Source: Candidatus Hermodarchaeota archaeon
GTDB lineage: Archaea; Asgardarchaeota; Hermodarchaeia; Hermodarchaeales; Hermodarchaeaceae
Direction: 5' to 3'
Length of the DNA stretch: 53,331 nucleotides
Assembly (NCBI GenBank): GCA_016839805.1
Contig: JAEOTO010000027.1
Coordinates: 1 to 53,331, forward strand
Shown here: positions 48,876 to 51,539 of the stretch, one piece after another
Numbering within the stretch: position 1 is the first letter of the stretch
Layout: each line of letters opens with the position of its first letter
Notes under the pieces: generated by a model
The model's database searches: none
Told to the model about the DNA's origin: nothing
What the model saw: only the letters and a program-made list of their open reading frames with translations
Program-made: the position numbers and the translations under genes

Positions 48876-50807
48876 TTAGACTGGTCCGAAATGTTGGTCA
48901 TAAAAGTGTTGGATTTCCTCAGGTTGGGGGAGGGTGCATTTTTTCCACACGCTCAATACCTCGTGAAGTTGGTTTTCGCCTGCTTGACCCTTGAACAGGT
49001 CCTTCAGGTAGGCTGTGCGTTCTTCGATATCGCGTTGACAAAACTGTAGATACTCTTCTGATGAGTAGAAACGGAGAGGATTGAATCGTTCACGATACCT
49101 AAGGACTCCATGAATGTCCTCCAGCTCCTGAGGATCGGGAATCAGGTAGGCTTTCCCGAATACTGGATGATTGAGCCACTTCTGGATTTTTCGATTCTCG
49201 ACCAAGTCAACCAGCCGTTTGGTGTCTTCGACTTTGATTTTCTCGCCTAGCCCTAGATAGACGGGTTTACCCTGACCATTCAGGTAAGGTTTTCCAGTGA
49301 CTTTGTCAATTTTAGTTACTGGTTCACCGTTCTCATCAAGTAGAGGACGTTGTTTTCCCTCGAAGTTGAATTCTCCGACGTAGCCAGAGTTGACAATGGC
49401 AAAAATAAGTTTGGCTTGTGGTCCCAGACCCATCTCTGTGTACATTTGGAGTTTTTTGATGGCTTGGTGAGATTGCTCTCGTGCCATGAAATCAGTTGCT
49501 GCATACGAACGAACTCGGGTTCCGGGTATTTTTCCTCCTACAGCTGAGGTGATAACCGATTCACAGGCTGAATCTAAAGCCACTGCCATAGCGGGATCGG
49601 TGATACAACTTACTAGTGGAAAAATATCAAATCGGCGAAATGAGAGCATGACAGTTCGAAGTTGTTTTGGTGATCCTGGTGTCCAATTTGGATTTAGATC
49701 ATAAAACCGAAAGACAAAACGACCATTCGTAGTTCCAGACTTTTCATAGCGAGTCGGTTGTAGATGCCCAACTTGTTCGCCAGGAAGTTTTTTTGGAACC
49801 TTTACGGTATGCCCTGCGATTTTTTCCATCCGATATTCGATACCTTCACAATCGATATTCTGAGCTAATACCACTGGGTGGGATTCATCAGGTTGGACTT
49901 CTCGGGATTTCATGAGTCCGGCCCATTCGGGACTCGCGGAGTCCAATCCTTCACTCTTTGCATAGGAAGCTGCTTCTAGCCCAATGAGGTGTATCTTGTC
50001 GATCTGTCGGTTTGGTTTCGTATATTCAAGGAGACCGAGGATCGCATCATCTTGCTGGAGTAGAGGACCCACTGTTAATGTGGTTTTTCCCGTTCCTGAG
50101 AGTCCTTTTAGGACACGGTTTTTCGTACAGCCTGCATGGTAAGAGATGAGTCCATCGGCTTCGCCGCGATTCCATACCATAGTGAGATTGGGTTTCTTGA
50201 AAGCCCCGCCAAAGTAATCCACTCGAAGGCTCATGACCCGGCGATGATCCTGATCCATCCGTGTAAGATCATAGAGGGTAAGCGGTTCATCGGGATCGAA
50301 GTCAGGCCAAAAACTTTGGATTTCTTTGATTACTGTTTCGGGTAATCGTTCTTGAACGATGTAATTCCAACAATGAATATCCATATCCTCTTCGGGAGGA
50401 TAGACCATTAGGCGCCCAAACCATGTGATATATGCCGTGTGCGGATTTTCCACACTAAGGATTATTCTAAGACCGGTCTTATAGGCGGCTTCACCCTGAA
50501 TACCATCCTGCACAATTACTTTGGCAGTTTTCAGATACCGGAGTACAACATCATAAAGTCTCAAACCGATATCTCGATCAAAACTCCGCTGCCCCTTGCC
50601 TAGCTTGTACCCTTCAGGAATGATATAGAAAGCCCTGTCAGGTCGTCGACCTGCCTGCGTGTTACCGAAGAGGTATTGCCCATCAATAGTTTTGACATAG
50701 TATGGCTTTAGATACTCGACAAACCAAGCATCATCCGGGTTCCGAATGACATCTTTGTCATCAAAGAAGAGCTCATCTTCGATATGTACAGGCACCGTAC
50801 TACTCAC
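48876..50807 (-). CDS. Divergent phosphoenolpyruvate carboxykinase (ATP-type)-like protein
   Basis: YFGGAFKK, YHAGC, P-loop GLSGTGKTT, QDD (kinase-2), EAASYAK and TNGR occur in the same order as the PckA motifs. Confidence 0.7.
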   Translation of the reverse strand: MSSTVPVHIEDELFFDDKDVIRNPDDAWFVEYLKPYYVKTIDGQYLFGNTQAGRRPDRAFYIIPEGYKLGKGQRSFDRDIGLRLYDVVLRYLKTAKVIVQDGIQGEAAYKTGLRIILSVENPHTAYITWFGRLMVYPPEEDMDIHCWNYIVQERLPETVIKEIQSFWPDFDPDEPLTLYDLTRMDQDHRRVMSLRVDYFGGAFKKPNLTMVWNRGEADGLISYHAGCTKNRVLKGLSGTGKTTLTVGPLLQQDDAILGLLEYTKPNRQIDKIHLIGLEAASYAKSEGLDSASPEWAGLMKSREVQPDESHPVVLAQNIDCEGIEYRMEKIAGHTVKVPKKLPGEQVGHLQPTRYEKSGTTNGRFVFRFYDLNPNWTPGSPKQLRTVMLSFRRFDIFPLVSCITDPAMAVALDSACESVITSAVGGKIPGTRVRSYAATDFMAREQSHQAIKKLQMYTEMGLGPQAKLIFAIVNSGYVGEFNFEGKQRPLLDENGEPVTKIDKVTGKPYLNGQGKPVYLGLGEKIKVEDTKRLVDLVENRKIQKWLNHPVFGKAYLIPDPQELEDIHGVLRYRERFNPLRFYSSEEYLQFCQRDIEERTAYLKDLFKGQAGENQLHEVLSVWKKCTLPQPEEIQHFYDQHFGPV

Positions 50808-50942
50808 CCACTGCGAATAATTGACTCATCAGCTTATTCCTTTTATATCTAGATACATGCTTGAAGTCTTTCAGCGATGAGGGTCGAAGGACAGTCGCTT
50901 CAGCTTTTTATGCCTGCTGGATAGACAGCGAAAGCAATTAAA

Positions 50943-51035
50943 GGGTTAAACTCCCTGGCGATGACTGAGCGGGTGGGATTCCTCGCACCGTGCTCCGCTC
51001 TCTAATAAAAATCCCGGGCTGCGAGGTGTAATATC
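50943..51035 (+). promoter_or_regulatory. Candidate cis-regulatory structured leader (riboswitch-like) upstream of queT
   Basis: Stem 50967-73/50994-51000; pseudoknot pairings 50974-80/51010-16 and 50981-87/51020-26, the latter covering the GAGGTG SD; A-rich linker; TATA-like TTTTTATG at 50905-50912. Confidence 0.55.
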
Positions 51036-51539
51036 ATGGAACAAGCTAGGTTTAATCGAAATCAAAGCATCGCCGTGATGGCGATTATGTCCGCATTATA
51101 TGCGGCTGTGACTATTGTTTTGGGACCCTTTAGCTATTTAGCTGGAATCAACTTTCGCGTTGCAGATGTCCTCTTACCATTTCCTTTCATTCTCGGATGG
51201 CCCATGGCCATTGCATTATTCATTGGAGGTTTTGTCGCCAATATCTTTGGTGGATTGGGTCCAATTGACATCGTCTTTGGAAGCCTGCTAAATTTGCTAG
51301 CCGGTATTCTTGTTATGAATCGAAAAACTTGTCCGCACTGGTTCTTCGCATGGTTATATCCCACACTGATTATTGGATTTGGGGTACCTGCATACCTGCA
51401 ATTCCTCTTCTTCACACCCTACATTCTTATCATGCCAGAAATTCTACTCAGTACGGGCCTCCTCTCTGCTATCGGCGTAATTGTAATGTTTGCAGTAGAG
51501 AAGGCTCTGCCACAGATTTTTAAAAAACCAACCAAATAA
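51036..51539 (+). CDS. queT: QueT family ECF transporter S-component (predicted 7-deazaguanine precursor transporter)
   Basis: ALYAAVTIVLGPFSY...INFRVADVL, IGGFVANIFGGLGPIDIVFGSL and a P-containing later helix are typical of QueT. Confidence 0.8.
   Translation: MEQARFNRNQSIAVMAIMSALYAAVTIVLGPFSYLAGINFRVADVLLPFPFILGWPMAIALFIGGFVANIFGGLGPIDIVFGSLLNLLAGILVMNRKTCPHWFFAWLYPTLIIGFGVPAYLQFLFFTPYILIMPEILLSTGLLSAIGVIVMFAVEKALPQIFKKPTK

Follow-up and report, generated by a model that had tools for sequence, protein, structure and literature searches.

A Conserved RNA Pseudoknot Overlapping the Shine-Dalgarno Sequence of Archaeal queT Is a Riboswitch Candidate of the 7-Deazaguanine Salvage Pathway

Genes and Features of the queT Locus

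The window in this study was a 53,331-nucleotide stretch of Candidatus Hermodarchaeota DNA, contig C15 of a host genome of 2.3 Mb that is 87% complete. A 228-bp gap lies between a divergent PEP carboxykinase-like gene (48876–50807, minus strand) on one side and queT on the other, and an acyl-CoA ligase gene follows queT. The queT assignment of the preliminary description was confirmed by the Pfam match (Table 1), and the ATG is present at 51036. The encoded protein shared 93% identity with QueT of a 'Hermod' MAG and 80% with that of Ca. Hermodarchaeum yapensis. EcfT genes were present in the host genome.

The queT leader contains one copy of a strongly conserved RNA pseudoknot of ~60 nt that is able to hide the Shine-Dalgarno sequence (SD). 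The element had been placed at 50943–51038; a conserved element does lie there, with true limits of 50967–51028. Both P1 strands and the SD were found where the preliminary description had put them, as were UGGGAUU (50974–50980), its proposed partner AAUCCCG (51010–51016), the anti-SD CCUCGCA (50981–50987), and UGCGAGG (51020–51026).

Table 1. Features of the queT leader in the window.
Feature	Position	Strand	Evidence
BRE-like GAAAGC and TATA box AATTAAAG	50930–50943	+	hexamer peak, 169 copies; TTATAAG there in relatives
P1 5' strand GAGCGGG, core GCGG, closing G-U wobble	50967–50973	+	pairing counts, 173 copies
Loop L1: UGG (invariant U and two purines) followed by variable GAUU	50974–50980	+	family comparison
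Anti-SD CCUCGCA and near-invariant CCG, 5' strand of pseudoknot helix P2	50981–50990	+	compensatory changes
Loop L2, UGC in the window, single U in most copies	50991–50993	+	173 copies
P1 3' strand UCCGCUC	50994–51000	+	pairing counts
A-rich loop L3 ending AAA, then U-CC	51001–51014	+	ANAAA end in 170/173 copies, partly fixed by the search pattern
P2 3' strand: CGG, 2-nt bulge, UGCGAGG covering the SD	51015–51026	+	duplex −14.9 kcal/mol
Shine-Dalgarno GAGGUG, 7 nt before the start codon	51023–51028	+	sequence
queT, ECF-type S component, 167 aa, presumed regulated gene	51036–51539	+	PF06177, E 5e-23

The promoter was located by family comparison. TATA-like hexamers in 169 copies peaked 31–37 nt before P1 (its GCGG core), behind an A-rich BRE zone. 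In the window, this peak maps to the box AATTAAAG at 50936–50943. The TATA-like box chosen earlier (50905–50912) lies 124 nt before the ATG and outside the family peak, and it was abandoned. By the standard archaeal TATA-to-start spacing, transcription is predicted to start at ~50963–50967, just before P1, which would place the whole motif in the 5' UTR. A small AGGG/CCCU hairpin had also been proposed in front of P1. It overlaps the TATA box, lies upstream of the predicted start, and was found in 1 of 17 family members; it is promoter DNA. The TATA-like run of the earlier choice (50903–50912), ~25 nt upstream of the family-supported TATA box, is loosely kept as CCTTTTT(A/T) in many Hermod relatives and is possibly a regulator site common to queT and the divergent PEP carboxykinase-like gene.

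Conservation and Distribution of the Motif

The block GCGGGU-RR-(loop)-CCG-(N)-UCCGC-(A-rich)-AAAYCCCGG-(SD) was present in 16 of 16 same-family genomes with queT, and the flanks diverge. The family pattern occurred once in the window and in 0 of 100 shuffles. A covariance model gave a single copy in the host genome (E 1e-11), and covariance-model searches returned one motif copy per genome.

Of 400 Asgard genomes, 31 carried the motif; they represent six families, and in each of them the motif precedes queT, although in G308 the two are split between contig ends. The queT genes examined from six other Asgard families were motif-less. In the Asgard families f30 and f16, motif-less queT genes carry the palindrome TACGTAT-N-ATACGTA 10–30 nt before the start codon (L067, L070, L073, L081–L083, L086, L090, L021), which is probably a transcription-factor operator replacing the RNA element.

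In Thermoproteota, the search pattern gave 40 true copies in 301 genomes. The covariance model gave 27 in 150 genomes, eight of them missed by the pattern. At least 120 loci, most of them before queT, were obtained by the metagenome scan, and these were assigned to Bathyarchaeia and Methanomethylicia by the names of homologues. As a check free of pattern bias, QueT genes were picked by protein similarity alone, and the motif preceded 8 of 11. Conservation upstream of queT orthologues extends across two phyla.

The parsed set comprised 173 distinct copies, which came from six Asgard families and from Bathyarchaeia and Methanomethylicia; the invariance of their core residues is partly imposed by the search patterns, and related genomes are not independent. 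The motif was 53–74 nt long, with two or three helices and a linker of 8–19 nt in the parsed copies, and an SD-like word stood within 0–7 nt of CGG in 167 of 173. Among the first 132 copies, 123 had QueT directly downstream, 8 were at a contig edge, and 1 preceded an ECF-S-like gene. Over the 173 copies, all but one were directly before queT wherever downstream DNA was at hand. The sole non-queT case is a strong copy (68 bits; L131:172-980) before a 245-aa membrane protein, which has no Pfam match and resembles an ECF S component. In three loci of family f12 (L022, L024, L099), ~100 nt separate the motif SD from the conserved QueT domain downstream, which points to an N-terminally extended protein or to a longer leader in this family.

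The motif was met only in archaeal contexts among the Asgard and Thermoproteota genome samples and the metagenome loci, and none was found in the viral contigs scanned. Several matches were rejected. A long variant in seven Thermoproteota genomes (L274–L280) was a pattern false positive in an rRNA-like conserved context, which we take to be 23S rRNA, and had no queT. Also discarded were L322 (E 9e-4) and some dozen metagenome matches rich in GC, which were without CCG or queT.

Pairing Evidence

The nested folding energy of the region 50940–51040 was not above chance (z = +0.72), and pairing was examined by comparison of copies. The P1 pair flanking the GCGG/CCGC core was formed in 170 of 173 copies (shuffle mean 123, maximum 134), and GC, AU, UA, CG, GU, and UG were all observed at this position. 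The proposed P1, GAGCGGG/UCCGCUC, is thus borne out by covariation with six pair types. In 43 diverse copies, 92% of P1 cells could pair with 37 two-sided changes, a result that no shuffle equalled (slid controls, 40–60%) and that is inflated by kinship and by core pairs fixed by the pattern. The MAFFT alignment behind this test misplaces the CCG columns of subtype B rows.

The pairing of the anti-SD with the SD, CCUCGCA:UGCGAGG, also held, with compensatory changes among copies: CCUCUCA:UGAGAGG (L052), CAAA:UUU (L053), and UCUC:GAGA (L150, L166). Duplexes of anti-SD and tail had a mean energy of −11.8 kcal/mol with their own partner, versus −9.9 kcal/mol when swapped and −7.6 kcal/mol when shuffled. 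A pairing missed in the preliminary description, CCG (50988–50990) with CGG (51015–51017), lengthens this helix to 10 bp with a 2-nt bulge (−14.9 kcal/mol). CCG was present in 168 of 173 copies; the other 5 have CUG, in which U-G pairing is retained. At the position next to CCG:CGG, L030 carries U-A. Covariation at CCG:CGG is sparse because the core residues are invariant. In L009 and L321, the middle G of CGG is changed to A with no compensation; this fits a rival UG:CG register, which is the inner part of UGGGAUU:AAUCCCG (U-G to U-A), or a triple of this U with the helix.

The second pseudoknot helix proposed earlier, UGGGAUU:AAUCCCG, was not retained at its full 7 bp. Its pairs 3, 5, 6, and 7 were possible in only 43, 30, 23, and 16 of 173 copies, and the full helix would leave zero loop between P1 and itself. 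It competes (−7.9 kcal/mol) with the CCG:CGG-extended helix (−14.9 kcal/mol). A 4-bp core of this pairing is possible.

Two subtypes were distinguished. In subtype A (most copies), L1 forms an inner hairpin, GUGG(G)/(C)CCAC, with the anti-SD in its loop and 3' arm; this hairpin pairs in 85–91 of 93 copies per position, with compensatory changes in L128, L133, and L150. Subtype B (21 copies, including the window) has no inner hairpin and a longer SD helix. For the window, an alternative GGUG/CACC fold hiding the anti-SD had been suggested. This fold is indeed the nested minimum-energy fold and hides the anti-SD, but it needs P1 slipped to GAGCG/UGCUC and does not fit inside intact P1. Of 18 subtype B copies, 7 had it as their fold of lowest energy in a calculation of nested folds. 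The GGUG/CACC fold with slipped P1 is a plausible ON state.

Two readings that require no ligand were weighed against these data. A DNA operator, or a chance GC-rich stretch, would agree with the unremarkable folding z-score and the palindromic CCCGGG. The compensatory and G-U changes on one strand, the variable spacer lengths, and the pairing with the SD argue otherwise; covariation largely refutes this reading, which is scarcely credible. A constitutive or temperature-tuned structure, damping the translation of a membrane protein or stabilising the 5' end, would keep pairing but not the identity of unpaired bases. It also leaves unexplained the one copy per genome, the restriction to queT/queC, and the covarying anti-SD hairpin of subtype A. 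We regard it as improbable, even with a strong 10-bp SD helix (−14.9 kcal/mol) and many hosts from hot springs.

Comparison with Known Riboswitches

In bacteria, queT and queC are controlled by three classes of preQ1 riboswitch that bury the SD (PMC11625349). No preQ1 match was obtained from Rfam at E ≤ 10 for the window or at E ≤ 5 for four other loci, and only chance matches (snR67, mir-737, FdoG1) were returned. As the preliminary description had supposed, the motif does not match preQ1-I, -II, or -III; the defining bases of these classes are absent as well. The literature was searched for such an archaeal motif and no description was found, subscription journals being mostly outside the coverage.

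The motif resembles preQ1-I (RF00522) as a small H-type pseudoknot with an A-rich L3 and a 3' helix strand overlapping the SD, located before queT/queC. The U directly 3' of the P1 5' strand (U6 in preQ1-I) was present in all true copies, those found only by the model included, and is partly fixed by the pattern. In contrast to preQ1-I, the motif has no AC/UC specificity cytosine before the P1 3' strand, and L2 carried UU in 151 of 173 copies. Directly before the P1 3' strand, most copies have U, the Hermod subtype has C, and a few have A. P1 closes with G-U rather than a G-C floor, and CC, not an L3 A, precedes the P2 3' strand. The archaeal motif further differs from preQ1-I in its larger loop, optional inner hairpin, anti-SD helix of 5–10 bp, and archaeal hosts.

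The preQ1-II class (RF01054, the COG4708/queT motif) also stands before queT, has its SD paired with an anti-SD from the main-helix loop, and acts by translational control, which is predicted for the archaeal motif. It is an HLout pseudoknot with P1–P4, a specificity C, and U-A-U triples, and is limited to Bacillota (PMC11625349). The archaeal motif has neither the P4 hairpin in the linker, nor C-U after the main helix, nor the U-A-U triple signature, and its junction helix is CCG:CGG.

With preQ1-III (RF02680), the motif shares the location before queT, the pseudoknot, and a U conserved immediately ahead of the P1 3' strand. That class is ~100 nt long, with five helices, a trans A-A ceiling, and a distal SD (PMC11625349). 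The archaeal motif has ~60 nt, is without P3–P5 and the trans A-A ceiling, and has its SD adjoining the putative pocket. The cytosine by which preQ1-I–III read preQ1 has no positional equivalent in the archaeal motif.

TPP and fluoride riboswitches are the most common classes known in archaea (PMC5473149). They are shared with bacteria and bear no relation to the motif in sequence, fold, or genes. Two traits general to riboswitches were found here: a conserved, covarying structure in a predicted 5' UTR, and association with genes of one metabolic pathway (queT, queT-queC). The archaeal RNA motif is real, widespread, and uncatalogued, and it makes a strong candidate for a riboswitch.

The absence of the specificity cytosine of classes I–III would also be expected if the same RNA switch were read by a macromolecule, either an RNA-binding regulator or a tRNA reporting its G15 modification state. 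The TACGTAT-N-ATACGTA palindrome at motif-less queT suggests that protein regulators act on queT elsewhere. However, no regulator gene co-occurs among the clustered downstream neighbours, and the compact pseudoknot, the invariant unpaired junction bases, and the A-rich L3 are unchanged across two phyla. Such a combination is typical of small-molecule aptamers. Macromolecular readout is thus unlikely, while deserving more weight than the other alternatives to a 7-deazaguanine riboswitch.

Gene Association and Candidate Ligand

queC was the sole enzyme gene repeatedly found right behind motif-bearing queT (PF06508, E 6e-66), with ~25 queT-queC operons. These occurred behind the motif at 7 metagenome loci, in 7 further model-only matches, and at 3 protein-picked loci, and include L246, L248, L259, L263, L286–L289, and L309–L315; two are queT-queC-queT. 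Among the motif-bearing Thermoproteota genomes, queC was found in 11, and 9 of these had it in the operon. QueD was absent in 5 of 5 queT-queC genomes checked, and QueE above the cut-off was absent in 4 of 4, which suggests uptake of CDG/ADG followed by conversion by QueC.

Archaeosine TGT was found in 46 of 48 Thermoproteota hosts and in the genome of the window (TIGR00432, E 2e-159), and 27 of 31 Asgard hosts had a TGT. Full-length QueC was found in 1 of 31 motif-bearing Asgard hosts versus 14 of 34 other Asgards sampled, counts that rest on incomplete, related genomes; it was not found in three single-contig genomes. The genome of the window has a QueD-like gene, and searches there for QueC, QueE above the cut-off, QueF, and YhhQ gave no match. 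Five hosts with archaeosine TGT (G000, G008, G019, G029, G039) were searched for ArcS, RaSEA, and QueF, and none of these turned up as a separate gene.

Within the established 7-deazaguanine pathway (PMC5372724, PMC11625349), the hosts look like 7-deazaguanine auxotrophs that may import preQ0 or an earlier intermediate that QueC turns into preQ0, because archaeosine TGT is kept, QueC is mostly absent, and the queT-queC genomes are without QueD/QueE. By its gene associations, the element is part of a putative 7-deazaguanine salvage regulon. A motif-less queT in Ca. Bathyarchaeota BA1 is followed by a gene of the queuosine-salvage family (L237:3692-4672; PF10343, 31.4 bits, above the curated cut-off), and this neighbourhood is a further presumptive link to archaeal 7-deazaguanine salvage.

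An archaeal QueT carrying another substrate would open the way to a riboswitch for an unrelated ligand, such as guanine or another purine, pantothenate or another vitamin. Against this stand QueC as the only repeatedly co-transcribed enzyme (~25 operons), the Q_salvage homologue after queT in BA1, and hosts with archaeosine TGT and without a de novo preQ0 route. No pan/coa genes were found to co-occur with the motif. The substrate of an S component is nevertheless hard to infer from its family alone, the L131 copy precedes a non-QueT gene, and some queT genes have a further S component and cofE behind them. This reading is quite unlikely, though not as improbable as a static or thermal structure.

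preQ0 is the best guess for the ligand, because it is the shared product and the substrate of archaeosine TGT. A short bacterial-type TGT also occurs in some hosts of families f23/f24, so that preQ1 or queuine remain in play. Transport of preQ0 by QueT in archaea is a presumed function.

Proposed Mechanism and Significance

We consider it probable that the element is an OFF riboswitch acting on translation, from a class not described before, and that it senses a 7-deazaguanine base. Within this reading, preQ0 takes the largest share as a tentative candidate, its overall likelihood somewhat below even, and preQ1, CDG/ADG, or archaeosine base account for the rest. The reading is supported by conservation in two phyla, covariation of P1 and of the anti-SD:SD helix, a TATA box just upstream, linkage to queT/queC, and the lack of an Rfam match. 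The original proposal of an SD-sequestering pseudoknot riboswitch candidate for preQ0/preQ1, outside preQ1-I/II/III, passed every computational test run.

In the proposed mechanism, the mRNA would start a few bases before P1. At low ligand, the anti-SD would be hidden in a local fold (slipped GAGCG/UGCUC with GGUG/CACC in the window, the inner GUGG/CCAC hairpin in subtype A). The SD would then be free, QueT would be made, and a precursor would be imported for archaeosine TGT. When ligand is present, we infer that it occupies the junction of P1 and P2, where the invariant G-U, U-R-R, CCG:CGG, and AAA-CC residues come together; the conserved CC after L3 provides candidate ligand contacts. Binding would lock the H-type pseudoknot and CCG:CGG and tether the tail beside the anti-SD. 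The anti-SD:SD helix could then zip up, burying GAGG and blocking ribosome loading. In subtype A, the tail would displace the 5' arm of the inner hairpin.

The riboswitch classes reported from archaea are very few, and every one of them is also known in bacteria (PMC5473149). If the proposed reading is true, metabolite-sensing RNA control of SD-led translation would extend to the closest relatives of eukaryotes, through a class restricted to archaea and common in Bathyarchaeia and Asgards. The number of RNA folds for 7-deazaguanines would rise to four, and this one would possibly be the first to prefer preQ0; the class I aptamers tested preferred preQ1 17- to 130-fold (PMC11625349). A substrate would also be assigned to archaeal QueT, and salvage of preQ0 or CDG/ADG from the community would be indicated. 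In its fullest form, the proposal makes the motif the first archaea-native riboswitch class, with an aptamer for 7-deazaguanines that is the fourth of its kind, arose independently, and selects preQ0. The class would be common to Asgard archaea and Thermoproteota and would exert feedback control on a salvage route for tRNA G15 modification, made up of QueT either alone or together with a QueC that acts on CDG/ADG after import. We put the likelihood of this form somewhat below even, level with that of preQ0 itself.

Several loci of interest were noted beside the motif. At L188, L198, L199, L209, L241, and L249, a second ECF S-component-like gene stands behind queT, and several of these loci have cofE (F420 ligase) as well. 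The only QueC in a motif-bearing Asgard genome (G306:C46:9454-13146) has a 798-aa frame with a weak TGT-like match in its vicinity, an arrangement suggestive of a DNA-modification (dpd-like) island. Short bacterial-type TGT genes (~380 aa) were located at G136:C151:5442-6503, G138:C150:43825-44883, G139:C175:2601-3665, and G140:C3:535258-536316, mostly beside the archaeal type, and queuosine modification in these archaea is possible.
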